Assembly (NCBI GenBank): GCA_943355005.1
Contig: CALRDV010000002.1
Location: 397 to 64,396, forward strand
Length of the DNA stretch: 64,000 nucleotides
Direction of reading: 5' to 3'
Source of the DNA: Patescibacteria group bacterium
GTDB lineage: Bacteria > Patescibacteriota > Microgenomatia > UBA1400 > MFAQ01
Under the pieces are notes generated by a model. The model was not told the origin of the DNA, ran no database searches, and saw nothing but the letters and a program-made list of their open reading frames with translations. Made by a program: the position numbers and the translations under genes. Positions 2,474 to 58,127 of this stretch are shown piece by piece. Positions within the stretch are counted from its first letter, which is position 1, and the number at the start of each line of letters is the position of its first letter.

Positions 2474-2499
2474 GTCATTCCTGGCTTGACCCGGAATCC
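2474..2499. repeat. Type-A palindromic element GTCATTCCTGGCTTGACCCGGAATCC.
   Basis: Inverted repeat ATTCC..GGAAT; family recurs at least 14 times in the window. Confidence 0.85.
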
Positions 2500-2512
2500 A
2501 GTCCCAACACTT

Positions 2513-2551
2513 GTCATTGCGAATCTCGTACTCGAGCTGTGGCAATCCAGG
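2513..2551. repeat. Type-B palindromic element GTCATTGCGAATCTCGTACTCGAGCTGTGGCAATCCAGG.
   Basis: Same GTCATT...AATCC frame with a longer core; 6 copies in the window. Confidence 0.85.
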
Positions 2552-2558
2552 CATTCTC

Positions 2559-2593
2559 GTCATTCCAACCGAGCACAGCGAGTGGAGGAATCT
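2559..2593. repeat. Type-C variant GTCATTCCAACCGAGCACAGCGAGTGGAGGAATC. It is the third of three stacked elements upstream of the 16S.
   Basis: Shares GTCATTCC...GGAATC termini; a related copy is at 9965. Confidence 0.7.
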
Positions 2594-2705
2594 CCCTCTA
2601 CCCACGCTCAAAAACCACCCCATAACTTGACTTTAGCCTCATTCTGTGCTAAACTCTGCCATCAATCGCCGCTAGGCGTGAACCTTAAAAAGAAAGGAGG
2701 TTTCC

Positions 2706-3473
2706 GTGAAAAGAAAAACATTTCTCTGCTGGATGAATGCAGAAGACCAGCCTTCATCGGTTATTAGTGCAAAGCTAGGCAATGCAGAAAAACCATTTTT
2801 CGTTAGATTGACCGGGGGTTGTGGCTTTATGAGCAGATCAGACGGAGAAGAATCCATAAAAGTTTTACTGGACACACTGACCGGTTTCAACGGTGTACTT
2901 CTTTACGGAGGCACGCGCGTTTACGAACCAAGCTCAAGTTCTTTGTCGGAATTTTCCGTTTTTCCAACCATTTTGGAAGTTCCTCCAATGCTTAGAAAAA
3001 TTAACAGGGGCATGATGTCTTTTGGCATCATCCCTCGGCTAACCAACGTTGAGTTCGATGCTGACCTGGGGCTGATCATCAGTAAAAACGATGAAAACGG
3101 CTTTCTAACAGTCATCCACCCCAATCAAGATATCTGCCTCGTCTTACAAAGAGACGTGGATCGAGGTTTCCCTGGAGATAAATATTGGGATATCGAGTGG
3201 CGTTTTTGTCTGGAAGTCGTTAAGTCATTCCTGGAAAATCGAAATAATTCTGGGACGGTTTTGATTTCATATAACGGAGGTGTTTCCACCGGAAAAGAAA
3301 TCGAAGCCTGGGCCAACAACAATTGGCCGGTTATTCTTTTTGAAAACAGTGGCAGAGTCACTACCGAGTTCTGTAGAAATACAGAATGGTTGGCGGCTCA
3401 CCCATCAGTTTTTGTCGCGAAATCTTCAGAAGATGCTCGCGAACAACTCACATTGTTAGGAGGTCTATCTTGA
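2706..3473 (+). CDS. Hypothetical Rossmann-like protein, possibly SLOG/LOG-like (GG-rich motifs LTGGCGFMS, LLYGGTR, NGGVSTGKE). GTG start. First of a tandem paralog pair.
   Basis: Sigma70-like promoter TTGACT(2626)-17-TAAACT; SD AAGGAGG 5 nt before GTG; 255 aa ORF. Confidence 0.6.
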   Translation: MKRKTFLCWMNAEDQPSSVISAKLGNAEKPFFVRLTGGCGFMSRSDGEESIKVLLDTLTGFNGVLLYGGTRVYEPSSSSLSEFSVFPTILEVPPMLRKINRGMMSFGIIPRLTNVEFDADLGLIISKNDENGFLTVIHPNQDICLVLQRDVDRGFPGDKYWDIEWRFCLEVVKSFLENRNNSGTVLISYNGGVSTGKEIEAWANNNWPVILFENSGRVTTEFCRNTEWLAAHPSVFVAKSSEDAREQLTLLGGLS

Positions 3474-4240
3474 ACCATAATTCACTTCTTGTAACAGTTC
3501 CTGGACCGGGCGTACATCTTCGCGTCTCAGACGCAGGTTTCCCGGCAGACATGGTCTATGTTGCCCAAAATGTCGCCGACACTTGCCGCAAACTTGGCAT
3601 CATACCCAGCGTTCATCGCATTGTTGGTGGCATGAACGTTCCAAACCCAGATGCGATGTATGATTACTTTTTGAATGCCTTTGGTGGACTTAACGGAGCA
3701 CTCATCATGAGTGGCGCCACACGTTGCCTAACAGAGTCAGGTTTCACTCCTTCTGTAGCAGAAGTTGTACCATTTGTGAAGAAGTTCTTACCCAACTCTG
3801 TTACCGCTGGTTCTTTTCCCCGCACTGAAGGCATGACTTTGTCAGGTCATGGAACCCTTTTTGTTGGGTCAGAACACACTGTCATCCCGAATCCCGAGAC
3901 CGAACATGTTGTGATCATCCAGAAAGATGGTAATGATGACTCTCTGCATGATCAGTGGAATGCGGATCTTCAGTTCTATCTCGATTACATGCAACTGCTT
4001 CGAGACGAAATGGGGTTCGTGCCGGTTCTAACAGTTTGGGAAGGTGGCGGTGTTTCAGTCAAAGAAGCCACACAGGGAAATGACCGTGGTTTCCGTGTTT
4101 GCGTGGCAGAGGGATCAGGTCGTGCTTGTAACAACCAGCTCTCACCTGCCAACTTCAATGGCAAAAATATACACCATGTTCCCTACAAAAATGGCACCCT
4201 GCAGCGGACTTTAATGCAGGCATGGAAAATCAGCAAATAA
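3470..4240 (+). CDS. Paralog of the preceding gene (about 256 aa from TTG at 3470; the ORF track starts at 3386). Same GG motifs (LIMSGATR, EGGGVSVKE).
   Basis: AGGAGG 6 nt upstream of in-frame TTG at 3470; 4-nt overlap with upstream stop suggests coupling; collinear similarity to 2706..3473. Confidence 0.55.
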   Translation: MNHNSLLVTVPGPGVHLRVSDAGFPADMVYVAQNVADTCRKLGIIPSVHRIVGGMNVPNPDAMYDYFLNAFGGLNGALIMSGATRCLTESGFTPSVAEVVPFVKKFLPNSVTAGSFPRTEGMTLSGHGTLFVGSEHTVIPNPETEHVVIIQKDGNDDSLHDQWNADLQFYLDYMQLLRDEMGFVPVLTVWEGGGVSVKEATQGNDRGFRVCVAEGSGRACNNQLSPANFNGKNIHHVPYKNGTLQRTLMQAWKISK

Positions 4241-4246
4241 AACAAA

Positions 4247-4275
4247 AGACCCCCGCAATCGCGTGGGTCTTTTTT
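4247..4275 (+). terminator. Rho-independent terminator (GACCCCCGCAATCGCGTGGGTCTTTTTTATT).
   Basis: Hairpin plus T-run directly after the stop at 4240. Confidence 0.6.
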
Positions 4276-4343
4276 ATTGATTTACCCCATTCATCCTGCT
4301 AAAATCCACGTATCGCAATTTAAAATTAAGAAAGGAGTCACCA

Positions 4344-4829
4344 ATGGCTCTAATTATCGATATGCCGAAACTACTGGAGATTCAAGCCTCTGGCTTAGCA
4401 ACCAGGGTTTGGAAGTACGCACCAACCTATTGGCGATATTCGACAAGAGAAGATGTTGAATATGGTCTTGTCAGTCGCGGTCTCAATATCAGTCCAAGAT
4501 CAGTAATTGTCCAAACCCTCGAAGGACCCAAGGAAATGGATGAAATTATTTGCATGGGTCTGGATGGAGAACTCTGGCCAACAAGTATAAAAGATTTTTG
4601 CCTTTCAAAAGTTATTTCAGATAAACCCTCCGATATTCCAGGTTGGAGACTAAGTTACAACAAGCCCGACGATCTCTGCTGGGCCATCCAGGTGGATGAA
4701 GATTTTACCGTCACGGCAGGTCACTCAAAACCCCTTTCTCAAAAAGCAGGAGCCTACCTCCTCTTCAAAGAAAAATGGGCATGGCCCGTCGCAGAACTGC
4801 TGTTCCCCCTATACTACAGACCCGTCTAA
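4344..4829 (+). CDS. Hypothetical protein, 161 aa.
   Basis: SD AAAGGAG before ATG; terminator hairpin at 4835-4859. Confidence 0.55.
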   Translation: MALIIDMPKLLEIQASGLATRVWKYAPTYWRYSTREDVEYGLVSRGLNISPRSVIVQTLEGPKEMDEIICMGLDGELWPTSIKDFCLSKVISDKPSDIPGWRLSYNKPDDLCWAIQVDEDFTVTAGHSKPLSQKAGAYLLFKEKWAWPVAELLFPLYYRPV

Positions 4830-4901
4830 AACCAACCCTCTCACGAGGGTCTTTTTTTATCAATTTGACTACCACCCCAAAAATACGATATATTGGTATA
4901 T

Positions 4902-5072
4902 ATGGCCAAAAAAGCTGCCCGAAAAACAACCAAGAAGGTTACCAAATCCACCAATGGCGCAAAACCAGTGATGAAAGCAAAGAAAGAAGAAAGCTACCTG
5001 GCTCTTCTTCTCATCATCCTAGCCGCCTCCCTCTTCTTCTTCTGGCTTGTAGTCAGCACCCAGGGAGTTTAA
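4902..5072 (+). CDS. Candidate small membrane protein, 56 aa (MAKKAARKTTKKVTK...LALLLIILAASLFFFWLVVSTQGV). Not in the ORF track because it is under 60 aa.
   Basis: Lys-rich N-terminus plus one TM helix; TTGACT(4865)-17-GATATA/TATATT promoter-like motifs just upstream; bidirectional terminator at 5094-5126. Confidence 0.35.
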   Translation: MAKKAARKTTKKVTKSTNGAKPVMKAKKEESYLALLLIILAASLFFFWLVVSTQGV

Positions 5073-5093
5073 ATAAGCATCTATTAGATATTA

Positions 5094-5126
5094 AAAAGCC
5101 CGGGCATCTGCCCGGGCTTTTTGTTA
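5094..5126. terminator. Bidirectional terminator (AAAAAGCCCGGGCATCTGCCCGGGCTTTTTGTT).
   Basis: Perfect GC hairpin flanked by an A-run and a T-run, between convergent genes. Confidence 0.7.
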
Positions 5127-5441
5127 CTCACTTCTAACAAAAGTGTGCTTGAGTGATTCCATAAAACTAATTGTTTCTTCAAAATTCAGGACTAAATAGT
5201 TTCTTGAAAACTCCAGCGTATTAAACCTTACGAGAACATCCCCCACCCAAAACTCAGACTGACCTTCATCATCCCCACCCAGCAGATCGATCAAGTCAGC
5301 CTCGTACCCCCCACCACCTTTGCCTGGACCAGCCAAAAAATTTATCTTTACTATACCCTCGATTTCCATAACCTCCACAGAACAGTTATATCCAGCATGT
5401 TTCATTTTGGGCACAAAAAGCGCCCTTTTCACCTCATTCAT
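5124..5441 (-). CDS. Hypothetical protein, about 105 aa from the internal ATG; Gly-rich segment GPGKGGGGYE.
   Basis: GAAAGGAGA SD 5-7 nt before the second ATG (MNEVKR...). Confidence 0.5.
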   Translation of the reverse strand: MNEVKRALFVPKMKHAGYNCSVEVMEIEGIVKINFLAGPGKGGGGYEADLIDLLGGDDEGQSEFWVGDVLVRFNTLEFSRNYLVLNFEETISFMESLKHTFVRSE

Positions 5442-5626
5442 CACAGTTCTCCTTTCAACGAACAAATTTTATGATTTAAATATATCATATCACAAATAAC
5501 CCTATAATACAATTCTTTTAGCCTCATCCTCATTTTTTAGCCTGAAAATCTACCTCGCGATTCATTGTACTACCCAAAGTTATATAATCTAGCTTCACCC
5601 ACTTTGAAATTCAAAGGAGATTACCC

Positions 5627-6409
5627 ATGACATTCATTTTTCATTCCGATTGCACCTGCCCCAGCTGTGGTTTCACCGGCGCAAATATCAAGATCCAAGA
5701 CTCGTATTCCAACTTCCCAAATCCCGAGGGTGTTTTTAAACTAGGGATATTTAGTCATGATGATTGTGGCTACAGCGAAGATCTAGGAAAATTTATAAAA
5801 AGAATTATCTCCGAACAGCGCGTAGGAAGTTATTCCGACAATCTTCTAAAATTAATCTACCAGAGGGAGCTTTTCCTCTCCACCACCCAGGATCACTACA
5901 AGCAGCTTGCCAAAGCGATCCAAAAAATAAATTCCCTGGTCAATGGATTTTTCTACACTACAGTCCTTACTGTCAACGACATCCCACTTGACACCACTTG
6001 CCCGCTTTGCGACGAAGTCCAACTTCAGGCAGCTGAGGATGAGATGGTCTGTAGCCATGGTCATTACAAAGTACCGGTTAAGTATTATCTCGAAGCCAAG
6101 TTAACTGCCTTGGGCTGTGAAGTCAAATCGGTTTTGGGAGATACAGAATCCACTTACGAAGTTTCCCAAGAAATATCTTTTACGCCAATAGCCAGTAGCT
6201 TCATATTACCCATATTTAGTACCGGAAAAGCCAAACTGACTAATAAGAAGATCGGCAATATTGTCTATCGTTTTCACGATGGTGAAAGAAAACTTGTCAT
6301 CAGCACAGGAGAACTTGCCGGTGCCTCTTACCTAATTTTTGTTGACTTGATCAAGTATCACTTCCAAGGTCAATTTAAAATCATTATCAAAAACGAGTCT
6401 GACTCGTAA
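5627..6409 (+). CDS. Hypothetical protein with N-terminal Cys4 zinc-ribbon (CTCPSC...CPLCDE...CSHGH).
   Basis: SD AAAGGAG; 260 aa ORF; terminator hairpins at 6427-6452 and 6461-6481. Confidence 0.6.
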   Translation: MTFIFHSDCTCPSCGFTGANIKIQDSYSNFPNPEGVFKLGIFSHDDCGYSEDLGKFIKRIISEQRVGSYSDNLLKLIYQRELFLSTTQDHYKQLAKAIQKINSLVNGFFYTTVLTVNDIPLDTTCPLCDEVQLQAAEDEMVCSHGHYKVPVKYYLEAKLTALGCEVKSVLGDTESTYEVSQEISFTPIASSFILPIFSTGKAKLTNKKIGNIVYRFHDGERKLVISTGELAGASYLIFVDLIKYHFQGQFKIIIKNESDS

Positions 6410-6480
6410 CTCTCCAAACAAACAAACCTTCCCAACCAGGAAGGTTTTTTTACAAAAAATTCCCCCGGCTAGCGGGGGTC

Positions 6481-6708: not shown

Positions 6709-6742
6709 TTTTACCTCCAATTCAGAGTACGCTCAAATCAAA

Positions 6743-7900
6743 TTATACAATTACCCCGCCACCCAAACACTCTCCGCCTTCTGTGTAGAATACTGCACTC
6801 TGTCCGGCCGCGATTCCTCGAATATCTTTATCCAGGATTATCGTCAGCCCATCTCCCATTTCCATCCCCCTTGCGCCAATTAATTCCCCACCATGACGAA
6901 TTCTCACCAAGAGATCATCCATATTCCATTTAGTTTTCGATATTTTATTTATCTCCCCCACCTCAAACTGATCCTCCATGGCGTCATCGGATTCTCCCAC
7001 CACCAATTCATTTTTTTTCGCATCTTTGGAAATCACATAAAATATTGGCGTCTCATTGTCATTGCGAGTTTCGTACTCGAACCGTGGCAATCCAGGAATT
7101 ATTTTATCCTTAGATAATTTTTTTTGAGCCGTTGGATTCATTACCCATCCACCTCTTTGTCCAATGGTATAGAACCACACTCCATCATGAGTTCCCACCT
7201 CATTTCCCTCGGTATCCAACACTTTTCCAACTTGCTTCTTTAATCTTCTGGCCAGAAATTCTTTCACTTCCACATTCCCTACGAAGCAAATTCCCTGACT
7301 ATCTTTGCGGTCGGCCACACTAAGCTTTGCTTCTTTAGCCAATTCTCGCACTTTACCCTTTTCAAAGTCTCCAAGGGGAAAAAGCACACGAGCCAGCTCT
7401 TTCTGAGTCAATTTCCATAGAAAATATGTTTGATCTTTATGTTTATCTTTCGGTATCAGAAGACGTCCCCCGGCCAGTTTTGCATAATGTCCTGTCGCAA
7501 TAAAGTCAAAGCCATTCTCCATCGCCCAGTCAAGGAAAAGTCCAAACTTAATCTCACTGTTACACAATACATCCGGGTTCGGAGTTCTCCCGGCTTCATA
7601 CTCCTCATAAAAATATTTAATCACTCTTTGGTTATATTCTTCGGAGAAATCCAAAACCTTAAAGGGAATTCCCAATTCCAAGCAAGTTTGCAAAGCCATC
7701 TGTCTATCCTCATCGGCTCTACAGCCATTTTTCTTTATCCATTCTTCCCTTGTAATACCATCTTTTTCAATCTCACTTTTCGGTGGCCAGCAATACAAGT
7801 GAACTCCAGTCACGTCATAACCCGCCTTTTTCAAAAGCAACGCACTTACGGCGCTATCCACGCCTCCGGAAATCCCTACAGCCACTTTTAATTGATTCAC
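6743..7900 (-). CDS. mnmA: tRNA-specific 2-thiouridylase MnmA (GTG start), carrying an in-frame type-B repeat insertion (peptide IIPGLPRFEYETRNDNETPIF).
   Basis: N-terminal PP-loop SGGVDS, conserved MnmA core, ORF uninterrupted through repeat 7058-7096. Confidence 0.85.
   Translation of the reverse strand: MNQLKVAVGISGGVDSAVSALLLKKAGYDVTGVHLYCWPPKSEIEKDGITREEWIKKNGCRADEDRQMALQTCLELGIPFKVLDFSEEYNQRVIKYFYEEYEAGRTPNPDVLCNSEIKFGLFLDWAMENGFDFIATGHYAKLAGGRLLIPKDKHKDQTYFLWKLTQKELARVLFPLGDFEKGKVRELAKEAKLSVADRKDSQGICFVGNVEVKEFLARRLKKQVGKVLDTEGNEVGTHDGVWFYTIGQRGGWVMNPTAQKKLSKDKIIPGLPRFEYETRNDNETPIFYVISKDAKKNELVVGESDDAMEDQFEVGEINKISKTKWNMDDLLVRIRHGGELIGARGMEMGDGLTIILDKDIRGIAAGQSAVFYTEGGECLGGGVIV
7058..7096. 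repeat. Type-B element inside mnmA (GTCATTGCGAGTTTCGTACTCGAACCGTGGCAATCCAGG).
   Basis: Repeat family member; translated in frame. Confidence 0.85.
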
Positions 7901-7937
7901 AGGCTATATTTTACGCTAAAAACACGTTCACGTTATA

Positions 7938-8624: not shown

Positions 8625-8673
8625 GCCAATATTATATCCCTATCAGAATCAAAACAAAAAAATCTTACAAATT

Positions 8674-9360: not shown

Positions 9361-11061
9361 TCATTTAAAAATTTCCATATTTCTCTCACACAGCTCATAC
9401 CCCGGCCTCTGCACCAGGCACTCTTCAAACTTTTTCTTCGCCTCTTCCTTTTTTCCCGTCCAAGAATAATAAAGTCCCCAGTTATTTAGTAGCTCTGGAT
9501 ATTTCGGATATATTTCATCCGCTTTCTCCATAAATTTTTTGGCATTCTCCAAATCATTCTTCATCAGATATATCGCCGCCTTATTACTCTGCGCCATCAC
9601 ACTTCCTGTCGCCACCCCACCATCATGCAAAAACAGTCTCTCTTGAGACAACCAGTCCAAATTCCTGACAAATGTCCTCCCCGCCAACAAAAATAATATT
9701 GCAATAAATATCGGTGCAGAAGAATAGCCAAACAACCGCACGGACCATGTACATGAGAGCCGAAGGGGATCCCGCTTTTCAGCGGGACGAAACAGTAACG
9801 CGGGAGTACGGTTTTTGGCGGTCTTCGAACCGATTAACATTGCAATCATCACCACCCCCAAACTAGGCAAAAACCAAAGTCTCTCTCCAAATATAGTTCC
9901 AATCGGAAACAAAATATTCCCGGTAATCAATATCGGACCCCAAAACATCACCATCCCCACCATCGTCATTCCGAGCGACCTGCCCGCTGTGGCGGGAGTC
10001 GAGGAATCCCCCTCCACCCCATCAGTCATTCCGGGCTTGACCCGGAATCTATATAAATAAATACAACTTAATGCAATCATCACCAGCCCCACCACCACCC
10101 TCCAATCAGTCCAGCTCTCCACCAACTTAATTTGGTTATACGAATAGTCATAGCTAAGATTTATTGGAAAGAGAACTTTCCCGACTCCAAAAGGAATCAA
10201 AGCTATCCCGTTTATCATTCTTTTTTCCGCACTAACAAACTTAAGAGGATTCTCCACCATCGTCGCTCTTGTTTCCATTCCACCTCCACCCAGCACCAGT
10301 AGCCTCATCATCCCAAATCCCAACATTGCCATTATCACCAGTATCATCGCCGCTGTCTTTTCACTTGCGGAAGTTCCATTCGATGACTTGTCATTCCCGA
10401 CCTGATCGGGAATCCATCCGGAGACTCCACCACCTCTAATAAATATCAAATACATTAATATCACCACTCCCACCACCGCCGTCTCTTTCGACAGCATCGC
10501 CAAAAACAAAAATAACGCACTCACATCCCATCTATTCTTAAAGTTTTCCAGAATAGCCAAAAGCATAAATCCAAGTGAAAGCATCTCCGCCCTTCCCACG
10601 ATATTATTCACCACCTCGGTATGAATCGGCATCACCACAAACACCAACGCCCCCCAAAACGCCAACTTCTCTCGCCATTTGTCATTGCGAATCTCGTAGT
10701 CGAGCCCTGCCTGCCGGCAGGCAGGTGTGGCAATCCAGGAACCATCAAGAAACTTTCTCATCACCCCATACACCAGCCAACACACCCACGAATATAGCAG
10801 CACATTACCAAGCCGAAATCCCCAAGCCCCCTTACCGGTTATTAAAGAATTCAAATAGAAACTAAAGCTCGTCATCGGTCTATACAGAGATTTCTCCTGA
10901 TCCAAATAGTAGTACGGTCTCGTCCACACTTTTATCAAGCTTTCCACTCTTCCCATCCCCGGATCTCCCGCAATCACTTTTAGGTCGTCCTGCACAAATC
11001 CACCAAAAATACTCACAAAATACAAAGCAAACGCAGATAAGAAAATTACCCAACCCTTCAT
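9361..11061 (-). CDS. Multi-pass membrane GT-C-like glycosyltransferase with C-terminal TPR repeats (TMTC/PMT-like; DD motif in first loop). The ORF stays intact across five repeat-element insertions.
   Basis: N-terminal TM helices with FVQDDLKV motif, C-terminal TPR (AIYLMKNDLENAKKF...YYSWTGKKEEAKKKF); repeat-derived peptides LDYEIRNDK, WIPDQVGNDK, KPGMTDGVEGDSSTPATAGRSLGMT. Confidence 0.65.
   Translation of the reverse strand: MKGWVIFLSAFALYFVSIFGGFVQDDLKVIAGDPGMGRVESLIKVWTRPYYYLDQEKSLYRPMTSFSFYLNSLITGKGAWGFRLGNVLLYSWVCWLVYGVMRKFLDGSWIATPACRQAGLDYEIRNDKWREKLAFWGALVFVVMPIHTEVVNNIVGRAEMLSLGFMLLAILENFKNRWDVSALFLFLAMLSKETAVVGVVILMYLIFIRGGGVSGWIPDQVGNDKSSNGTSASEKTAAMILVIMAMLGFGMMRLLVLGGGGMETRATMVENPLKFVSAEKRMINGIALIPFGVGKVLFPINLSYDYSYNQIKLVESWTDWRVVVGLVMIALSCIYLYRFRVKPGMTDGVEGDSSTPATAGRSLGMTMVGMVMFWGPILITGNILFPIGTIFGERLWFLPSLGVVMIAMLIGSKTAKNRTPALLFRPAEKRDPLRLSCTWSVRLFGYSSAPIFIAILFLLAGRTFVRNLDWLSQERLFLHDGGVATGSVMAQSNKAAIYLMKNDLENAKKFMEKADEIYPKYPELLNNWGLYYSWTGKKEEAKKKFEECLVQRPGYELCERNMEIFK
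9713..9836. repeat. Copy A of an about 90-125 bp dispersed repeat (GGTGCAGAAGA.TAGCCAA....TTTTTGGCG.GGT.TTCGAACCGAT), in frame inside CDS 9361..11061.
   Basis: Aligns with 13960-14072 and, at the termini, with 49734-49822. Confidence 0.75.
9965..10009. repeat. Type-C element GTCATTCCGAGCGACCTGCCCGCTGTGGCGGGAGTCGAGGAATCC, in frame in a CDS.
   Basis: GTCATTCC...GGAATCC termini with internal palindrome. Confidence 0.8.
10025..10064. repeat. Type-A element plus TATATAAATAA extension, in frame in a CDS.
   Basis: GTCATTCCGGGCTTGACCCGGAATC followed by TATATAAATAA, as at 12944 and 15437. Confidence 0.8.
10390..10415. repeat. Type-A element GTCATTCCCGACCTGATCGGGAATCC, in frame in a CDS.
   Basis: Identical core to the copies at 12919, 15412 and 47065. 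Confidence 0.85.
10681..10739. repeat. Type-B element with a nested 20-bp perfect palindrome (CCTGCCTGCCGGCAGGCAGG), in frame in a CDS.
   Basis: Equals the 2513 copy plus an internal palindromic insertion. Confidence 0.8.
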
Positions 11062-11969: not shown

Positions 11970-12923
11970 CTACCTCACCATCTCCCTCGCCACATTTATT
12001 TCCGGGAATGCTTTTTCAAACCACTTGAATTGTGCAGTTCTATTCACTTCAAAGATTCTCCACTGCTTAGCCTCTTCATCCCAAGCCACATCCAGCCCTG
12101 CAAAATCAGCCTTAAGAACTTTCGTTGCCTCGACACTTAGTCTTTGCAATTCTGCCATCTGCTCTTTACTAAACTTCGGTTTAATTTTCGATAGCTCTTC
12201 CTGCTGAGATAGCACTTGGAACTTATCTTTTTGTCTGTGTTTCATCATCCCCAATATCTCTCCATTTAGCACCAACACTCTATACCATCTTCGTACTTTC
12301 AAAACAGGCTGAATCAAGACGTCTCCCTCACTATATTTCTGAGAAAGTTTTACCAGGCGGGTCAGTGATTCTGCTAGTTTCACATTTTTTCCATGAGATC
12401 CAAATCTCGCCTTGACCATTACCGGCACAAATTCTCCTTTCCGTTTAGATAGTATTTCCAAATATCTTTTCCATCCTCTAGCCCCACGGAAAGATACAAA
12501 CGGAATTACCGGTAGTCCCGCTTCAGCCAGCAATATTCCTTGTTCAAGTTTCCCCATAAGTGGAAACATCTTAAAGCTTTCCCCATTGATCACAGAAATA
12601 TCTCTCTCTGAATTTTTCGTTTGCTCCAAGAACTCCAAAATCACCGACTTCACCCCTAGCATACTTTCCCCACCTCTTTTAGTCGCGGCTCTCGGGATAA
12701 TCAAATCATATTCACTCAGTTTTTTTCCGGTTCCCAAATCTACAATTGGCTTACCCATCTTGCTTACACCAATTCGCACATGTTCATAGTTCACCTTATC
12801 CACGGAATATCCCAAATTACTCGCCTCTTCGGCTAATCTCTTGGGTTCATACTCCCCTCTAAATCTAGTCAATATTAATATCTTTTTCATTACTTTTCTT
12901 GATGTCGTCTTAATATCTGTCAT
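11970..12923 (-). CDS. ATP-grasp ligase, RimK/alpha-L-glutamate-ligase-like. The true start may be the internal ATG at 12890 (MKKILIL); the extreme N-terminus of the track ORF overlaps a repeat element.
   Basis: ATP-grasp signature regions (…EFVPVMVKARFGSHGKNV…, …FAGLDVAWDEE…WRIFEVN); about 300 aa. Confidence 0.7.
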   Translation of the reverse strand: MTDIKTTSRKVMKKILILTRFRGEYEPKRLAEEASNLGYSVDKVNYEHVRIGVSKMGKPIVDLGTGKKLSEYDLIIPRAATKRGGESMLGVKSVILEFLEQTKNSERDISVINGESFKMFPLMGKLEQGILLAEAGLPVIPFVSFRGARGWKRYLEILSKRKGEFVPVMVKARFGSHGKNVKLAESLTRLVKLSQKYSEGDVLIQPVLKVRRWYRVLVLNGEILGMMKHRQKDKFQVLSQQEELSKIKPKFSKEQMAELQRLSVEATKVLKADFAGLDVAWDEEAKQWRIFEVNRTAQFKWFEKAFPEINVAREMVR

Positions 12924-12958
12924 TCCCGACCTGATCGGGAATCTATATAAATAATTCC
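12919..12958. repeat. Type-A element plus TATATAAATAATTC extension.
   Basis: GTCATTCCCGACCTGATCGGGAATC TATATAAATAATTC. Confidence 0.85.
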
Positions 12959-13000: not shown

Positions 13001-13013
13001 AATATTTTGAATA

Positions 13014-15411: not shown

Positions 15412-15450
15412 GTCATTCCCGACCTGATCGGGAATCTATACAAATAATTC
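15412..15450. repeat. Type-A element plus TATACAAATAATTC extension.
   Basis: GTCATTCCCGACCTGATCGGGAATC TATACAAATAATTC. Confidence 0.85.
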
Positions 15451-19638: not shown

Positions 19639-22092
19639 TCAGGCAACCACAAAGTTAATTGTTTTTCCTTTAATATAAATTATCTTTTTAATTTCTCCAG
19701 CCAATAAATATTTCTCCAATTTTTCAATCTTCTTAACTGTATCTACAACAGCTTCCTCAGAGGCATCATTCTCCACTTCTATTGTCTCTCTCATTTTTCC
19801 ATTTATTTGGACAGAAATAGTTATCACATCGGTCATCAAATATTTTTCCTCAAATTTCGGAAATTCTTGAGCATGGACACTAAACTCTCCACCCAATAAA
19901 TTCCAAAGTTCTTCTGTTACAAAAGGAGCAAACGGAGCCAGCACCTTTACGACTCTGCCCAAATCTTCACTGCTTACCTCCGCTCCACTACGAAGCAACG
20001 CGTTTGTTGTCTCCATTAGTTTCGCAATTACTGTGTTGAACTTAAATTGAGACAAATCTTCTCCAGCACCTTTTATTAATTTATGAATCAACCTGGAACT
20101 CTCCAAGTCGGTAACCACATACTTTCCGGCGTTCTCAGTCACAAGCCTAAATATTTTCTCGATAAATCTTCTAACGCCCACCAGTGATCTTTCATTCCAC
20201 GCCATAGTCGAATCAAATGGTCCCATAAACATCATGTAGGTCCTCAGGACGTCCGCTCCGTAGGTTTCGGCCACTACATCGGGTACGATTACATTCCCCT
20301 TACTTTTACTCATTCTGTTGCCATCTGGTCCCAGCAGTACCCCATGAGACAGTCTCTTTTTATATGGCTCAGGATAAATTTTTGGCACCACCCCCAAGTC
20401 CCACAAGAACTGATAGATAAATCTTGAATAAAGTAAATGCAAAGTGTTATGTTCATCTCCACCCACATAGACATCCACCGGCATCCAGTACTCCATTTTT
20501 TCTTGACTGGCTAACATTTCTCTATTTTTTGGGTCACAATATCGAAGAAAATACCAGTCACTTCCGGCCCAGTTTGGCATCGTGTCGGTTTCTCTTTTTG
20601 CTTTTCCACCACAATTCGGACAAGTCGTCTCGACCCATTCTTTTATATTGGCGAGTGGTGACTCTCCTGTGTCGGTCGGCTGGTACTTCTCGACCTCCGG
20701 CAAAACCACTGGCAAATCTTTTTCTGGAACTGGTATCCACGACCCTGTCATTCCGGGCTTGACCCGGAATCCATCCCCCTCCGGTACACAATTCTCACAC
20801 CAGATCATCGGAATGGGCTCCCCCCAATAATGCTGTCTAGAAAAAATCCAATCCCTTAAGTGGTATGTCACTGCTTTTTCTCCAAAGCCCTTTTCTTCTA
20901 TAAGACTGATTATCAAATCATCCGGCACAAATTCAGAATCTATCGGCAAATTATATTTATCGGCAAAAGCCTTATCCCTATCATCGTGTGCTGGCACCGC
21001 CATAATCGCTCCGGTTCCGTAACCCATGAGAACATAATCACTTATCCAAATTGGAATTTCTTTATTGTTAAGCGGATTTACGGCATAAATTCCCGTAAAG
21101 ACGCCTGTCTTCGCTCTGGTGTCATCAGTTCGCTCAATCTCACTCCTCCCCTTCACCTCATCAAGGTATCTTTTAATGTCATTCCTGGCTTGACCAGGAA
21201 TCCATCCAATTAATTCCGAATTCTCCATCAAATGCTTCACCATCGGATGCTCCGGAGCCAATACCAAGAAAGTTGCCCCCGGTAAAGTATCCGGTCTCGA
21301 AGTAAACACCTCAAGAATATCAGTTTCACTCTTCCTCCCTGTCATTCCGGGCTTGACCCGGAATCCATCTGGAGTTTTTATTTCAAATTTTATCTTTGCC
21401 CCCTCTTTCTTCCCTATCCAATTAACCTGTGCCGCCTTAACTTTTTCGATAAAATCAGTATCTTTCAAACCTTCGAGCAATCGATCTGCATAATCCGTGA
21501 TTTTCACTACCCATTGTGAGATAGTTCTCTTTTCCGTTTCAGATCCGCATCTTTCACATTTACCATCAATCACCTCTTCATTAGCCAAACCAATTTTATC
21601 TTTGGGGCACCAATTAATCGGCATCTCTTCTTTATGAGCCAATCCTTTTTCAAAAAGTTTTACAAATATCCATTGCGTCCATTTGTAGTAGTCCGGCATT
21701 GTTGAGTTCACTTCTCTATCCCAATCAAAAGAAAATCCCAGTTTCCTCATCTGCATCCGGAAATTGTCAGTCACTTCTTTGGTTATTTCTTTTGGATTTT
21801 TTCCGCTCTTTATCGCATAGTTCTCCGTTGGAAGCCCGAATGCGTCCCATCCCATGGGGAACATCACATTTTTTCCCATCATCCTTTGGTATCGGGCATA
21901 GACATCGGCTCCAGTCATAGCAAACCCATGTCCCACATGTAGCCCGCTTCCGGATGGATAAGGAAACTCGGTCAGCATATAGAATTTTTGTTTATCTGCT
22001 TCAAAGTCCAGACCTTTATAGCCGGCAAAACCGTCATACTTACCTATCCACTTCTTCTCAATTTCCTTAAAATCATAGCTTGCCATACGCAT
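19639..22092 (-). CDS. leuS: Leucyl-tRNA synthetase with three in-frame type-A repeat insertions. The likely start is MRMASYDF (ATG at 22092 or 22086); the track ORF start at 22110 is the SD translated.
   Basis: Class I HMGH/KMSKS motifs (…PSGSGLHVGHGF…, …KMSKSKGN…), conserved LeuRS N-terminus YDFKEIEKKW; inserts GFRVKPGMTGRKSE, WIPGQARNDIKR, GFRVKPGMTGSWIP. Confidence 0.9.
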   Translation of the reverse strand: MRMASYDFKEIEKKWIGKYDGFAGYKGLDFEADKQKFYMLTEFPYPSGSGLHVGHGFAMTGADVYARYQRMMGKNVMFPMGWDAFGLPTENYAIKSGKNPKEITKEVTDNFRMQMRKLGFSFDWDREVNSTMPDYYKWTQWIFVKLFEKGLAHKEEMPINWCPKDKIGLANEEVIDGKCERCGSETEKRTISQWVVKITDYADRLLEGLKDTDFIEKVKAAQVNWIGKKEGAKIKFEIKTPDGFRVKPGMTGRKSETDILEVFTSRPDTLPGATFLVLAPEHPMVKHLMENSELIGWIPGQARNDIKRYLDEVKGRSEIERTDDTRAKTGVFTGIYAVNPLNNKEIPIWISDYVLMGYGTGAIMAVPAHDDRDKAFADKYNLPIDSEFVPDDLIISLIEEKGFGEKAVTYHLRDWIFSRQHYWGEPIPMIWCENCVPEGDGFRVKPGMTGSWIPVPEKDLPVVLPEVEKYQPTDTGESPLANIKEWVETTCPNCGGKAKRETDTMPNWAGSDWYFLRYCDPKNREMLASQEKMEYWMPVDVYVGGDEHNTLHLLYSRFIYQFLWDLGVVPKIYPEPYKKRLSHGVLLGPDGNRMSKSKGNVIVPDVVAETYGADVLRTYMMFMGPFDSTMAWNERSLVGVRRFIEKIFRLVTENAGKYVVTDLESSRLIHKLIKGAGEDLSQFKFNTVIAKLMETTNALLRSGAEVSSEDLGRVVKVLAPFAPFVTEELWNLLGGEFSVHAQEFPKFEEKYLMTDVITISVQINGKMRETIEVENDASEEAVVDTVKKIEKLEKYLLAGEIKKIIYIKGKTINFVVA
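20747..20772. repeat. Type-A element inside leuS.
   Basis: GTCATTCCGGGCTTGACCCGGAATCC; translated as PGMTG... on the minus strand. Confidence 0.85.
21178..21203. repeat. Type-A element inside leuS.
   Basis: GTCATTCCTGGCTTGACCAGGAATCC; translated WIPGQARND. Confidence 0.85.
21341..21366. repeat. Type-A element inside leuS.
   Basis: GTCATTCCGGGCTTGACCCGGAATCC. Confidence 0.85.
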
Positions 22093-22113: not shown

Positions 22114-22150
22114 GTCATTGCGAGGAGGTACTCCGACGTGGCAATCTACC
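22114..22150. repeat. Type-B variant in the leuS 5' region (GTCATTGCGAGGAGGTACTCCGACGTGGCAATCTACC).
   Basis: GTCATTGCGA...GTGGCAATC frame. Confidence 0.75.
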
Positions 22151-27414: not shown

Positions 27415-28479
27415 TTAATAATTAAAGTCACCCATATAGATTATCTCGTCCGCTAATTCTACTCCTACAGTTTCTCTAGCCCGCTTTACTATCTCATTTC
27501 TCACGGCCAAGTAATCCTTTGCGGTCGCCGCACCAGTATTAACGATAAAGTTATGGTGTTCAGAGCTTATCATCGCTCCACCCACGTTGAAGCCTGTCAT
27601 ATTTAGAATATGCTCTACTATATATCCGGTGGCAGTCGTCGGATATCCAAGTATCTCTTTCGCCGATTCGGAAATATTTTTAAACACACACCCGGCCGAG
27701 TTTACCGGCTGGCATGACTTTCTTTTTCGCCACTCCTCTGCCACATATCTAGCCCTGTCTAAGTCTCCCTTCTTTAAAGACAAAACCACTTCCAAGACTA
27801 TCTCTCCGGTTTTTTGTATTCTCGATTTATCATATTCAAATCTCATACTCTTGGCGGGAATTTTCAAAACATCTCCTTGCTTGGTAAGAACCACTACACT
27901 GGAGACTATTTCTGAGAATACATGGCTTCCTCCGTGAATATTATTAAATACAGCCCCTCCCAAGGTACCGGGGATTCGGCTATACCACTGCAATCCGGAT
28001 ACTCCGATATCAAACATTTGCATCATGGCCACCTGAAGATTTACCCCACTATCTATTGCCACCTCAATATCCGGATATTCACTTTCGTCATAATTTAAAT
28101 CACCAAAGTCATACTTCATTGTTCCTTCCTTTGCCGCCATCCACCTCGCCTCCCCAACGACTTCGTCATTGCGAGCGTACTCGCGTGGCAATCTACCTGC
28201 ATCAGACTTTATTTCTATTTTTCCCCCTTTATTTTTTATCACCAATCCTCGAATTCCCAAGTCACTTACCAGAACATTACTTCCTCCACCTATTACTGTC
28301 ACCGGCACTCCGAATGTTCTAGCCAGTCTGACCGCTTTAATTAATTCTCCTGAATTGGTGGATTCGTAAAAATAATCGGCCGGCCCTCCGATTCTAAGGG
28401 TTGTGTGAGAAGACAAGGGCTCGTTCAGTCTCACCCTTTCCTCACCCAAGCTCTTGATTAGTCCGTCTACATTACTCAA
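27415..28479 (-). CDS. murB: UDP-N-acetylenolpyruvoylglucosamine reductase with an in-frame type-B repeat insertion (peptide GRLPREYARNDEVVGE).
   Basis: FAD-binding TLRIGGPADYFYE; C-terminal MurB domain; ORF continuous through repeat 28165-28198. Confidence 0.85.
   Translation of the reverse strand: MSNVDGLIKSLGEERVRLNEPLSSHTTLRIGGPADYFYESTNSGELIKAVRLARTFGVPVTVIGGGSNVLVSDLGIRGLVIKNKGGKIEIKSDAGRLPREYARNDEVVGEARWMAAKEGTMKYDFGDLNYDESEYPDIEVAIDSGVNLQVAMMQMFDIGVSGLQWYSRIPGTLGGAVFNNIHGGSHVFSEIVSSVVVLTKQGDVLKIPAKSMRFEYDKSRIQKTGEIVLEVVLSLKKGDLDRARYVAEEWRKRKSCQPVNSAGCVFKNISESAKEILGYPTTATGYIVEHILNMTGFNVGGAMISSEHHNFIVNTGAATAKDYLAVRNEIVKRARETVGVELADEIIYMGDFNY
28165..28198. repeat. Type-B variant inside murB (GTCATTGCGAGCGTACTCGCGTGGCAATCTACC).
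   Basis: Family termini; in frame. Confidence 0.8.
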
Positions 28480-31711: not shown

Positions 31712-31737
31712 GTCATTCCTGGCTTGACCAGGAATCC
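31712..31737. repeat. Type-A element between aspS and glyQS.
   Basis: GTCATTCCTGGCTTGACCAGGAATCC. Confidence 0.85.
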
Positions 31738-47022: not shown

Positions 47023-47047
47023 GTCATTCCTGCGAAGGCAGGAATCC
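47023..47047. repeat. Type-A element GTCATTCCTGCGAAGGCAGGAATCC.
   Basis: Family termini. Confidence 0.8.
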
Positions 47048-47064: not shown

Positions 47065-47090
47065 GTCATTCCCGACCTGATCGGGAATCC
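47065..47090. repeat. Type-A element GTCATTCCCGACCTGATCGGGAATCC.
   Basis: Identical to the 10390 copy. Confidence 0.85.
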
Positions 47091-48391: not shown

Positions 48392-48422
48392 GTCATTACG
48401 AAGTAATCCGTGGCAATCCAGG
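48392..48422. repeat. Type-B variant in the tyrS 5' region (GTCATTACGAAGTAATCCGTGGCAATCCAGG).
   Basis: GTCATT...GTGGCAATCCAGG. Confidence 0.75.
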
Positions 48423-53728: not shown

Positions 53729-53769
53729 GTCATTGCGAGTTTCGGTATTCCGAACCGTGGCAATCCAGG
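53729..53769. repeat. Type-B element in the argS leader, between the T-box terminator and the start codon.
   Basis: GTCATTGCGAGTTTCGGTATTCCGAACCGTGGCAATCCAGG. Confidence 0.85.
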
Positions 53770-53983: not shown

Positions 53984-54247
53984 CTATTTATCTTCTGGAG
54001 CAGGAATACCACCCGGAAGTGGCAATTCAAGGACACCTCTCCCTAATGCTTGAAATATTTCTTCTTTGGTCGTATAACCTTCAATCGCATTAATCAGGTC
54101 TAAAGCAACATAAAACGGAGCCTTTTCAAGATTTTGCCGACTCAAAAAGTCTAAAGATAGACCTGCCGCATGAAGAAAGGAATATCTCTCGGATACACTT
54201 CGCATCATGTGTCTAGTTAACCAATTTTTCAACAGCCTCTTGTCCAT
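53984..54247 (-). CDS. Small hypothetical protein, 87 aa (MDKRLLKNWLTRHMMRSVSERY…); tandem paralog of the next gene.
   Basis: SD GGAGG 5 nt before ATG; terminator at 53945-53975. Confidence 0.5.
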   Translation of the reverse strand: MDKRLLKNWLTRHMMRSVSERYSFLHAAGLSLDFLSRQNLEKAPFYVALDLINAIEGYTTKEEIFQALGRGVLELPLPGGIPAPEDK

Positions 54248-54262
54248 TTTTCCTCCAAAAAC

Positions 54263-54526
54263 TCAGTTTAAGGGCAAAACAATTCCCTCAGGTAAAGGCT
54301 CGACTTTAAGAGCTTCAAAGACCACAGAACCCGCCTCTTTTCCCATCCAATCAATGATGCCATTTTGGGGACCACAAAGCTGCGAAGCAATTAACCGAGG
54401 TGAAGCATCCAAATTAAATTGCGCCAGATATCTATACTCAACTCCAACCTTCAAAAGCAACGCATATCTTTCGGATGTACTTCTCATCATGTGAGCTATC
54501 ACCAACTTCTCCAAATCTTTATCCAT
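54263..54526 (-). CDS. Small hypothetical protein, about 87 aa from the internal ATG (MDKDLEKLVIAHMMRSTSERY…); paralog.
   Basis: SD GGAGGT before ATGATG; shared HMMRSxSERY motif. Confidence 0.5.
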   Translation of the reverse strand: MDKDLEKLVIAHMMRSTSERYALLLKVGVEYRYLAQFNLDASPRLIASQLCGPQNGIIDWMGKEAGSVVFEALKVEPLPEGIVLPLN

Positions 54527-55936: not shown

Positions 55937-56164
55937 TTAGAGAAATCTCTTCAATAATTTAGCATATTCTTCTTTGTTACAGCTGTCCATGGCGTCAGCC
56001 AAAAGTGCCTTGGCCACACTTTTAAGGGAGCTCATCGAAGCCACTACTTGGGTCACAACCGCTTCACACTTCTTATCATCGGCAATCATTTTTTCTATTC
56101 CACCCACTTGCCCTTGAATTCTTTTTAGTGCTACTTGGAGTTTTTTCTTTTCTTCAACAGTCAT
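55937..56164 (-). CDS. CsoR/RcnR-family metal-sensing transcriptional repressor (about 75 aa from the internal ATG; the track ORF extends to a TTG at 56200).
   Basis: …LKRIQGQVGGIEKMIADDKKCEAVVTQVVA… matches the CsoR core. Confidence 0.55.
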   Translation of the reverse strand: MTVEEKKKLQVALKRIQGQVGGIEKMIADDKKCEAVVTQVVASMSSLKSVAKALLADAMDSCNKEEYAKLLKRFL

Positions 56165-56201
56165 ACCTCTAATATACCCCCCATGGTATGTCCATGTCAA
56201 C

Positions 56202-56753
56202 CTAGAAATTTAAAGACAACAATCCAAAGATAATAGACACTAATATGACAAACCACCTCTTCTCTTCCGGATTCACCACCCGTTTAATTTGCCAAAACCA
56301 AAGATCAAACCTCTCGTGGTTCCAGAAATAATCAAATATCAAATCAAAAACTAAATGAATTCCTATACCCAAAATGAAACCTCTGCCAAAGCTACTCGAG
56401 ACACTTGTTACCGCTAGAAGTGCCAAAACTAAATAAACCACCAAGAACAAGAAACTTCTCATTACAAGCTCCTTCTGCTCATGTCTTTCACTTAGTAGAG
56501 TCAATACCCCCTCAGAAAATTTATTTTGACCAAACAAATCTTTTAGCCTCATTCCCAGCGCCTCATTTGGCTTCATAAGAAAGCTGTATATAAATCTATC
56601 GGTAAATACGAACAGGAACCCAATTACAGCACCCAATAGCCACCACAACAAATCCAATCCAAACACAAAATTTCTTGTTATTATCTTAAAAAGAATCAAA
56701 AAAATCAAAAAACCAAACAATACCAATTGATGCAAAGTAACTTTATCTCTCAT
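56202..56753 (-). CDS. Integral membrane protein, hypothetical.
   Basis: Multiple TM helices; 183 aa. Confidence 0.5.
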   Translation of the reverse strand: MRDKVTLHQLVLFGFLIFLILFKIITRNFVFGLDLLWWLLGAVIGFLFVFTDRFIYSFLMKPNEALGMRLKDLFGQNKFSEGVLTLLSERHEQKELVMRSFLFLVVYLVLALLAVTSVSSSFGRGFILGIGIHLVFDLIFDYFWNHERFDLWFWQIKRVVNPEEKRWFVILVSIIFGLLSLNF

Positions 56754-56796
56754 ATCTCAATTAATTCTAGCACTTCAAAGTACTCCAAAGTACTGA

Positions 56797-58044
56797 TTAG
56801 TCCCACGTCTTTATCTCCACTTGAGGCAATCTTAATTTCTTCGGAGTAACTAAAAGTAAAATTATCGCCACAATAACCATGAATACTCCCATAATTGAGA
56901 ATGTCATTCTTTCTCCTACCACCTGGGCAATTCCACCTGCCAATATCGGACCCAGAATATACGCGATGCTAATTGTCGAACTAGACAAACCCACCATATG
57001 TTTACCCTCTTTACCCATTCTCTGAACAATGTCTGAATAAACAGCATCAATCATCGGCCAAGCCACTGCAAGCGCCGTACCCGTAAGCAAAGACACCGCC
57101 AACATGAACCAGTAAGAGCTAATGACCCCCATCAAACTTAGAAATATACCGGCAATCAGCATTGATATTTCAGCAATTTTCTTTTTCCCTTTATATACAC
57201 CCCATCTTGCCACTACTACGCCGAAAATTACCATTGGAAGCATATAAAACGGCAGAAACATTCCACCCAACCAGTTTTGCTTTGCCAGATTGTCCGACAA
57301 CACTGTTCCTGTAGTCCAAAAAGTCGCATCAATGAGACCCATGACCATACTCACCATTAGTATTGGCCATACGTGTTCCAGCAATACCCACCAAAGTTTC
57401 AGCTCGCGCAAGATATTAACTTTCTCCTCATTTTGCTCTGAAGTCGTTTTTTTTGAATTTCTACCCATTACCAGCCAAATTACGTATCCCAAGAAAACAA
57501 AGAAGGCCGCCGTCAACACTGTTTCAGTATTCCCTTTTGTTAGAGCAATATAGCTCCCAATAATCGGACCCAAGAAATATGCCAAACTTCTAAAAACCCC
57601 CATTATTGCCCAAGCACCGGATCTTGCCGTTGCTGGAACCGCCTCGGAAACAAACTGTTGTCCACCAAACCCCAAAAATTCATAATAAATCCCCCATACC
57701 GCCATAGCTATCAAGAAAAACACCACCCAAGGTAAGACGATAGACCAAAGCAAAACACCACAAAACACCAAACTTGTCCCTATTGCCATCAGCATCAGCT
57801 TCCTGGTTCGAACAAGCTTGAGAAGTTGAGGAAAAACCAAGTCTGCTCCAAATCCCACCAACGATGAAAACGAGAGAATTAATCCCATTACCAAAGAACT
57901 ATGGGTAGAGTCTTGAACAAACGAAGGAACCCAATCACTCAAGATACCATCGCCCAAATATATAAAGAAAAGCATTAAGGACAAAACCAAAACTCTTCCC
58001 CAAAAACCTCCAAGCAAGTTTCCTATTTGAAATTTTCTATTCAC
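56797..58044 (-). CDS. MFS transporter.
   Basis: About 12 predicted TM helices; 415 aa. Confidence 0.65.
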   Translation of the reverse strand: MNRKFQIGNLLGGFWGRVLVLSLMLFFIYLGDGILSDWVPSFVQDSTHSSLVMGLILSFSSLVGFGADLVFPQLLKLVRTRKLMLMAIGTSLVFCGVLLWSIVLPWVVFFLIAMAVWGIYYEFLGFGGQQFVSEAVPATARSGAWAIMGVFRSLAYFLGPIIGSYIALTKGNTETVLTAAFFVFLGYVIWLVMGRNSKKTTSEQNEEKVNILRELKLWWVLLEHVWPILMVSMVMGLIDATFWTTGTVLSDNLAKQNWLGGMFLPFYMLPMVIFGVVVARWGVYKGKKKIAEISMLIAGIFLSLMGVISSYWFMLAVSLLTGTALAVAWPMIDAVYSDIVQRMGKEGKHMVGLSSSTISIAYILGPILAGGIAQVVGERMTFSIMGVFMVIVAIILLLVTPKKLRLPQVEIKTWD

Positions 58045-58080
58045 CTTTTTATCATACTAGAATTTTTTATGCCAAATTTA

Positions 58081-58127
58081 GTCATTCCGGGCTTGAATCG
58101 GCCGCTGGTACCCGAAGGGGTGAATCC
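58081..58127. repeat. Type-A element with internal insertion (GTCATTCCGGGCTTGAATCGGCCGCTGGTACCCGAAGGGGTGAATCC). It supplies the C-terminal codons and the stop of the upstream CDS.
   Basis: Family termini; overlaps the 3' end of ORF 58082..58432. Confidence 0.75.

Follow-up and report, generated by a model that had tools for sequence, protein, structure and literature searches.

Probable CGTC-tagged REP-type hairpin repeats with one-strand orientation in a Candidatus Collierbacteria genome

The DNA analysed here is a 64-kb window (64,000 nucleotides; positions 397 to 64,396, forward strand, of contig CALRDV010000002.1, assembly GCA_943355005.1) from a Candidatus Collierbacteria genome of the candidate phyla radiation (CPR), where LeuRS homologues place it among the Microgenomates. 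The window carries a dispersed family of short hairpin-forming repeats, and the final tally gives 21 copies, about 1 per 3 kb, all in one orientation (21:0; binomial p ~1e-6). The elements are very probably CGTC-tagged repetitive extragenic palindromic (REP)-type hairpin repeats, members of the superfamily that holds dRS3/NTS, the Ssn-related motifs (SRM) and the Rickettsia palindromic elements (RPE) RPE-4 and RPE-6. The repeat family is known and very widespread, and dRS3 has been known since about 2000. The apparent novelties are its occurrence in a CPR host, an almost complete restriction to one strand, the head-to-tail instead of head-to-head arrangement, an intragenic fraction of nearly 50% in essential genes and a core swap at an orthologous site. 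A first-pass annotation of the same DNA had described a dispersed, hairpin-forming and apparently mobile family that tolerates in-frame coding insertions, and our results support this description; the single-strand orientation of every copy was absent from it.

Number, structure and orientation of the copies

Expected counts were obtained from dinucleotide-preserving shuffles of the window. The window has 22 matches to the octamer GTCATT[CG]C where 4.3 would be expected (shuffle maximum 8), and all of them are on the plus strand; the GSAATCC half by itself is not enriched in the window (22 vs 17 expected). A frame-aware scan (GTCATTSC, 6-50 nt, GSAATC; one mismatch allowed; closing stem must pair) found 22 sites on the plus strand and 2 weak ones on the minus strand, compared with about 1.5 per strand in the shuffles, and a search of the minus strand for GTC followed by a perfect palindrome found no family member. 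The first-pass annotation had counted at least 22 copies at about 1 per 3 kb. The density stands and 20 of its 22 sites are complete elements, whereas those at 3224 and 22782 are chance matches, because the 3' arm is absent and they are located in plus-strand open reading frames (ORFs). Its copy list was also incomplete, since a degenerate type B copy (48392..48419) was found by the frame-aware scan.

A complete unit consists of 5' GTCATT(C/G)C, a palindromic core and 3' G(G/C)AATC(C/T). Its Y-GTC tag and its C-CA tail are both unpaired, and between them lies a stem that begins with ATT(C/G)C and encloses a short loop or an inner stem. Units measure 26-56 bp, and the hairpin is the sole inverted repeat. 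GTC is invariant among the 21 window copies, preceded by T in 12, C in 7 and A in 2, and GSAAT is followed by C then CA in 14 of 21 and by C then TA in 5 of 21. The frame is invariant and the stem interior covaries, with pairing maintained on the tagged strand.

Three subtypes and an A/T-rich tail in some copies, as described earlier, were confirmed by reading the sites. As single-stranded DNA (ssDNA), type A (n=12) forms a hairpin whose stem is 8 bp long (ATTCCNNN/NNNGGAAT) and whose loop has 5 nt (CYTGA), and its folding energy as DNA is -7.3 to -8.5 kcal/mol (z ~ -3 to -4.6); the copy at 47023 has a 4-nt loop, unlike the others of this type. Type B is two-tier, with a 5-bp closing stem ATTGC/GCAAT, an internal loop and an inner stem of 4-5 bp that covaries among copies. 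In types B and C the ATT(G/C)C closing stem is retained, but an internal loop and a second stem are present, and these types agree in part with the stem and loop of the described CGTC REPs.

Some copies are composite. A 20-nt GC-rich palindrome, CCTGCCTGCCGGCAGGCAGG, lies in the loop of the 10681 copy (10706-10725) and again in the loop of a type B copy near 2484 of the relative L126, so that it is seen in two genomes, and the 58081 copy carries an GGCCGCTGGTACCCGAAGGGG module. The GGCCGYTGGTMCCCGAAGGGG module is nested both in the 58081 copy and near 3869 in another relative, L002. The nested palindrome and the GGCCGYTGGTMCCCGAAGGGG module look like second-order elements hosted by the hairpins, which bears out the earlier suggestion that the elements are targets of further inserts.

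In all 21 window copies the tagged strand is the C-rich strand. The window has about 41% GC and a GC skew of -0.17 to -0.43 throughout, without a switch, and this negative skew fits the whole-genome G/C strand disparity published for Collierbacteria and the order UBA1400 (PMC7143001). Among relatives, the ratio of copies tagged on the C-rich strand to the others is 3:0 in L002, 5-6:1 in L126 and 4:2 in L127, the last including one head-to-head pair; pooled with the window, the count is about 33:3 towards the C-rich strand (p ~2e-7). Since the G-rich strand carries about 75% of the coding DNA of the window, either replication or transcription could lie behind the bias. The copy at 31712, between two plus-strand genes, is oriented like the rest, which is weak evidence for a strand-linked over a transcription-linked cause.

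Dense arrays were found on contigs of the IMG/VR database: L143 (IMGVR_UViG_3300025714_000452) has 16 copies and L181/L151 (IMGVR_UViG_3300003667_000196) 24 or more, all co-oriented with the tagged strand C-rich. These contigs are classed as viral and have 57% GC, and the copies lie within 7-8 kb at about 1 per 300-500 bp with C-rich spacers; here the arrays themselves may create the C-rich skew. The stretches read of both contigs contain no GIY-YIG gene. A universal strand rule was considered and rejected, as no link to skew or gene direction holds across phyla: the strand rule is lineage-specific.

Coding and intergenic copies, with gain and loss among relatives

Nine copies lie within coding sequences (CDSs): one in an MnmA-like gene, four in a TMTC-like gene, three in LeuRS and one in MurB. 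Two overlap CDS ends and ten are intergenic, several of them 11-25 nt from a start codon. Every copy is tagged on the plus strand. The genic copies claimed by the first-pass annotation were verified as in-frame read-through: all nine are read without a stop on the minus strand, in two of three frames (...GMT four times, for example GFRVKPGMT; ...ND five times, for example WIPDQVGND and ...TRND), and the third frame, which ends in TGA, is used by none of them. Like RPE, these nine copies are in-frame insertions in intact conserved genes, with stop-free LeuRS, MurB, MnmA-like and TMTC-like ORFs. Such tolerance had been called unusual; for this family it is not, since in-frame intragenic copies are already recorded in Di Nocera 2013 (BMC Genomics 14:522, PMC3733652). 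For annotators, the inserts matter because they lengthen conserved proteins by stereotyped peptides, GFRVKPGMT and WIPDQVGND among them.

LeuRS gives evidence of gain and loss. Its three inserts are type A and are all in variable loops in a 14-sequence LeuRS alignment. Those at 20747..20772 and 21341..21366, both read as GFRVKPGMT, are absent from the 83%-identical orthologue of L002, where the DNA alignment has two 45-nt gaps. The third site (21178..21203; peptide WIPGQARND) is occupied in both genomes with identical flanks, the orthologue carrying the variant WIPDQVGND. The two cores, TGGCTTGACCA vs CGACCTGATCG, differ at five positions, including two compensated pairs, and copy replacement is more likely here than stepwise mutation, because both cores are common 'master' variants elsewhere. 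A 71%-identical LeuRS orthologue has a copy in the first loop (that of 21341) in the other reading frame, which can only be an independent insertion, and about 10 of 120 Microgenomates LeuRS contain recognisable element-derived peptides. The absences in the 83%-identical orthologue and the independent insertions in others support mobility. The spacer upstream of leuS also differs, with a short type B copy here (22114..22147, 21 nt upstream of the called LeuRS start) versus a composite type A copy in L002.

The TMTC-like gene (9361-11061, minus strand) holds a type C copy with a GC-rich inner hairpin (9965..10009; peptide ...SLGMT), a type A copy with an A/T-rich tail (10025..10050; RFRVKPGMT), another type A copy (10390..10415; WIPDQVGND) and the type B copy with the nested palindrome (10681..10736; WIATPACRQAGLDYEIRND). 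The copy in the MnmA-like ORF (6743-7900, minus strand) is of type B (7058..7093; GLPRFEYETRND), and that in MurB (27415-28434, minus strand) is a short type B (28165..28194; AGRLPREYARND). Relatives have unrelated sequence of equal length in this MurB loop. We rejected MurB as an 'empty site', as the loop is equally long with or without the element.

Upstream of the 16S gene (738-2235, minus strand), between it and a plus-strand ORF, there is a head-to-tail triplet, which starts with a type A copy (2474..2499; TGGCTTGACCC core, one T.C mismatch), continues with a two-tier type B copy (2513..2548; closing ATTGC/GCAAT, inner CTCG/CGAG) and ends with a type C copy (2559..2593), whose frame is intact, whose core is poorly paired and which appears degenerate. 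A type A copy with an TATATAAATAATTC tail (12919..12944) overlaps the RimK_N gene (11970-12923, minus strand), the called ATG of which lies within GTCAT. Another type A copy with a tail (15412..15437) lies between two minus-strand genes, 11 nt upstream of an ATP-grasp start, and has an orthologous but decayed counterpart in L002. The type A copy at 31712..31737, between two plus-strand aminoacyl-tRNA synthetase (aaRS) genes, is the sole copy with plus-strand genes on both sides.

Between convergent genes, a type A copy with a 4-nt loop (47023..47047; CGTC-1/dRS3 geometry) is followed head-to-tail, after a 17-nt spacer, by a further type A copy (47065..47090). This stack had been placed 5' of a class-Ib aaRS gene (47157-48374, minus strand), and in fact it is 3' of it; on the 5' side there is only the degenerate type-B-like copy at 48392 (GTCATTACGAAGTAATCCGTGGCAATC), 17 nt upstream of the start. 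The earlier view of stacked clusters was otherwise confirmed, at 2474-2593, 9965-10050 and 47023-47090. The last two copies are a type B (53729..53766, 25 nt upstream of the ArgRS start) and the composite type A with the GGCCGCTGGTACCCGAAGGGG module (58081..58127), which has a damaged 3' arm and overlaps the last codons, at the 3' end, of a 116-aa ORF.

Some features of the surrounding DNA were recorded as well. The 16S gene stands alone near the contig end with the three hairpin copies in its upstream region; it is the sole Rfam match of the window at gathering thresholds, and 9.6-14.2 kb is empty at E<=1. The 64-kb window contains no tRNA gene. Genes for aaRS are unusually concentrated in about 35 kb (19639-54000), where Pfam assigns LeuRS, ArgRS, HisRS, GlyRS and TyrRS, together with one further class-Ib, two class-IIb and one class-IIa genes of uncertain specificity. 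Ten ORFs of 113-284 aa at 2706-9342 have no Pfam family at E<=0.01, and two tandem 87-aa ORFs (53984-54526), just upstream of the ArgRS leader copy, have no confident Pfam family. A second, unrelated repeat of about 130-150 nt is present at 9695-9844, 13941-14088, 12976-13008 and 49716-49806 (minus-strand sense). It starts with tRNA-T-arm-like ATCGGTTCGAAnCCGCGCCAAAAA and ends with ...TTTGGCTAGTCTTCTGCACC, and two copies are 84-85% identical. One copy is read through in the TMTC-like ORF and the rest are intergenic. Rfam gave no match at E<=1 for this repeat, and T-box leaders, which were considered for its identity, are without Rfam support.

Spread of the motif, the Ssn-type nuclease and competing explanations

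One genome per species (185,579 species) was scanned with the pattern GTCATTCCNNNCYTGANNNGGAATC, in which three inner stem pairs were left free. At least 120 stretches matched, over a very wide bacterial range that includes Patescibacteria, Bacteroidota, Proteobacteria and Chloroflexi, plus one archaeal metagenome-assembled genome; the motif also occurs on IMG/VR contigs, at times in dense arrays. Among the matches listed, the six free stem positions are fully Watson-Crick paired in 121 of 135 copies, with more than 20 arm combinations, and with the listed viral-contig matches added, 630 of 648 free positions are paired. Non-canonical pairs on the tagged strand are G.T in 13 cases and A.C in 1 (p=0.002), which indicates that the hairpin is maintained on the tagged strand. 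The base 5' of GTC in copies from other genomes is T in 102 and C in 96 (198 of 216), and the tail is CA in 146 of 216. Unrelated lineages share the motif, but its positions are not orthologous, and it occurs in two reading frames as well as between genes, which marks it as a repeat and excludes a conserved coding or RNA feature, the alternative that the first-pass annotation had named. Inteins and introns were rejected because units of this length are too short and translation runs through them, and CRISPR repeats because the spacing is irregular. The exact element sequences and peptides were not found in other papers by literature search.

In Neisseria, the 94-aa GIY-YIG protein SsnA binds and cuts NTS solely as forward-strand ssDNA, a few nt upstream (Chenal 2025, Nat Commun 16:2388, PMC11893778). 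SRM flank ssn genes in many phyla, and Ssn is encoded by 81% of those genomes that have over 200 motifs (PMC11893778). The GIY-YIG ORFs that we found in other genomes are about 90 aa long and single-domain, assigned by Pfam PF01541. Such an ORF adjoins copies in an Elusimicrobium contig (L016), has a forward copy on one side and an inverted one on the other in the Flavobacteriales contig L079, and lies about 3 kb from a copy in a Muricauda contig (L037). Within the CPR, a Candidatus Peribacteria contig (L070) has an Ssn-like gene (6660-6946, minus strand) that is flanked upstream by a type A copy and downstream by a canonical NTS core in inverted orientation, and because copies flank it, the nuclease-motif association holds in CPR. 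This gene has an in-frame TGA, so that it is either a pseudogene or read with UGA as a sense codon in that lineage.

Among the matches listed, Ssn-like proteins of 94-96 aa are 64-89% identical among CPR (including Absconditabacterales), Ignavibacteria, Omnitrophota and Francisella. Homologue searches seeded from the Elusimicrobium/Flavobacteriales and the Peribacteria proteins returned only other phyla, and no Collierbacteria, in the best 120. The unusually high cross-phylum identity of Ssn parallels the near-identical hairpin frames, and this sequence pattern suggests that nuclease and motif may have spread together horizontally.

The mechanism that we propose can be put as follows. The units would be non-autonomous mobile or converting elements, with the ssDNA exposed at replication as their probable active form, and a small GIY-YIG nuclease of Ssn type would recognise them, a link presumed to hold in this genome too. 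Copies are gained and lost among close relatives, with independent re-insertion in the same tolerant loops in either open frame. Turnover would proceed by insertion or copy replacement, and genic copies would persist solely where 9-19 extra residues are accommodated in frame in surface loops. The one-strand orientation could come from strand-specific insertion at the fork, or from a purge of those copies that would place their cleavable strand on the lagging-strand template, which stays exposed for long and is taken as the G-rich strand by the usual skew convention. More specifically, a replication-strand-specific ssDNA step might mobilise CGTC/SRM hairpins in Collierbacteria and relatives, through insertion or conversion-like core replacement on one template strand. 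This last idea is tentative, and we would rather doubt it than rely on it; such a step would explain the 33:3 bias, the LeuRS variant swap and the repeated in-frame colonisation of essential genes. If true, it would tie the behaviour of the family to the whole-genome G/C strand disparity of the UBA1400 order, and it would give a first comparative-genomic handle on the movement of CGTC REPs and Ssn motifs.

Several observations weigh against the assignment or the mechanism. To our knowledge, transposition has never been demonstrated for any member of the CGTC-tagged family. The flanking loops are themselves variable, so neither a clean target-site duplication nor an exact empty site could be delimited, and no duplication is visible at the two sites empty in L002. 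Head-to-head dimers, typical of CGTC REPs, are absent from the window, which has singletons and head-to-tail arrays only. No GIY-YIG gene was found in the window and the next 10 kb (74 kb) by Pfam on called genes or by a six-frame hidden Markov model scan; Pfam found none in the uncalled left end of the window either, and a crude six-frame GIY-YIG regular expression on the window was likewise empty. For 124 copies from other phyla, orientation has no association with local GC skew or gene direction, and strongly skewed loci of other phyla go both ways, with a Coxiellaceae locus at 4:0 on the G-rich strand. Finally, the published SRM expression HGTCWYN(0-2)YYVSBRHN(0-5)WNVSBRGN(0-2)RNCYNB has 0 matches on either window strand. 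It misses the copies because their loop is one base longer and their stem interior differs, which leaves the conserved frame unaffected; the frame being identical, we rejected this expression as a membership filter, and annotators should be aware that it overlooks such copies.

The strongest competing explanation is selection at the RNA level, in which the copies would serve to stabilise mRNA, to attenuate or terminate transcription or to modulate translation, and transcription would account for how they spread and are oriented. Most intergenic copies are 11-25 nt from starts of minus-strand genes (15412, 22114, 48392, 53729), the 12919 copy supplies a predicted ATG, and many REPs are argued in Di Nocera 2013 to be transcribed and to act as RNA (PMC3733652). 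The G.T preference would be consistent, too, with transcription of an RNA from the tagged strand; however, this strand is the template for about 75% of the coding DNA, which means that the reverse complement, in which G.T becomes A.C, is present in most transcripts. Moreover, the DNA orientation of the 31712 copy is unchanged between two plus-strand genes, a regulatory hairpin has no obvious role in the nine copies inside CDSs, the hairpins lack a T run on the 3' side, and NTS in its RNA form is not bound by SsnA (PMC11893778). Selection of the hairpins as RNA elements is unlikely, and an RNA-level function is possible for the start-proximal copies.

Alternatively, the copies could be passive landing pads or recombination sites of another mobile element and not mobile themselves. 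dRS3 has been reported as a target of the Nf prophage recombinase in Neisseria, other palindromic modules are nested in several copies here and in relatives, and the motif occurs on IMG/VR contigs. Yet the called genes of the 74 kb include no recombinase, transposase or prophage gene, and the appearance of copies in new protein loops in different frames would be left unexplained. As a full account this is very unlikely, and it is compatible with our main explanation, not an alternative to it.

[quoted passage not shown] The copies do resemble such elements as short palindromic high-copy repeats, and their replication-strand orientation bias recalls IS200/IS605 single-strand transposition. However, the tag is (Y)GTC and not GTAG, no Y1 or other transposase Pfam family is present among the called genes, and Di Nocera 2013 reports no RAYT in association with CGTC repeats (PMC3733652). 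The MITE likeness drawn in the first-pass annotation fails too, as there are no IS-derived TIRs beyond the hairpin, a target-site duplication is not detectable, and the units are 26-56 bp long instead of 70-300 bp. Chance, compositional artefact or a conserved peptide or RNA motif has practically no probability and is refuted: two of the 22 octamer matches are indeed chance and the GSAATCC half alone is not enriched, but 22 full frames stand against about 1.5 expected, intergenic copies and two reading frames occur, the motif is absent at orthologous positions in close relatives, and the stems covary.

Comparison with known repeat systems

GTAG REPs and REPINs are inverted doublets handled by an HUH tyrosine transposase (RAYT), and IS200/IS605 copies have a replication-linked orientation bias. 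The window copies resemble both in being hairpin repeats that bear a tag and are presumably processed as ssDNA; they differ from the GTAG/RAYT system in the GTC tag and in the lack of a RAYT among the called genes of the 74 kb.

RPE were reportedly described by Ogata et al. in 2000. They too are short palindromic repeats found in frame in functional protein genes, where they add small peptides, and RPE-4 and RPE-6 have the same CGTC tag. Differences are the length of classic RPE-1 (100-150 bp) and its host, an obligate intracellular alphaproteobacterium; we know of no report of strand exclusivity for RPE. The likeness to RPE proposed in the first-pass annotation is apt, as Di Nocera 2013 places RPE-4 and RPE-6 of R. 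conorii in the same CGTC-tagged REP superfamily (PMC3733652).

The Neisseria NTS, CGTCATTCCCGCGMAVGCGGGAATCYRG, contains dRS3; the three bases before its palindrome (GTC) are needed for cleavage, and binding depends critically on the C that follows it (PMC11893778). The window copies and NTS/SRM share the frame GTCATTCC...GGAATC(C/T)(A/G), and both are oriented and clustered. The invariant positions here (GTC, the ATT/AAT stem base and the C after the stem) are those important for SsnA cleavage or binding, and, as in oriented SRM, GTC is directly 5' and C directly 3' of the palindrome. In contrast, the copies here are intragenic and one-stranded, with no ssn gene in the 74 kb. Chenal 2025 makes no mention of Patescibacteria, intragenic copies or strand bias (PMC11893778). 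The spread of such hairpins and the role of Ssn outside Neisseria are matters on which this CPR genome bears, and a tiny CPR genome with dense one-strand copies and visible gain and loss offers a compact natural system for studying ssDNA movement at the replication fork.

The closest comparison is with the CGTC REPs. Di Nocera, De Gregorio and Rocco (2013) characterise them by a CGTC or TGTC tag, a stem of 8-9 bp that begins with AT, a loop of 4-5 nt and a tail fitting CCA, and they form families CGTC-1 to CGTC-4 in 5 phyla, mainly Alphaproteobacteria; CGTC-1 equals dRS3 and R. conorii RPE-6, and CGTC-4 equals RPE-4 (PMC3733652). They are mostly head-to-head dimers with negligible head-to-tail pairs, intragenic in-frame copies are catalogued, and neither a dedicated transposase nor a RAYT is linked to them (PMC3733652). 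The study does not describe them from CPR, and two-tier type B and composite copies are outside its four families as the accessible text gives these. The window copies agree with the CGTC REPs in tag, tail and, for type A, stem and loop. Common to both are the 8-bp AT-opening stem, the 4- or 5-nt loop, the CCA tail, a size of 20-40 bp, multiple subtypes per genome and in-frame genic copies; type A here has CGTC-2 geometry and the 47023 copy that of CGTC-1.

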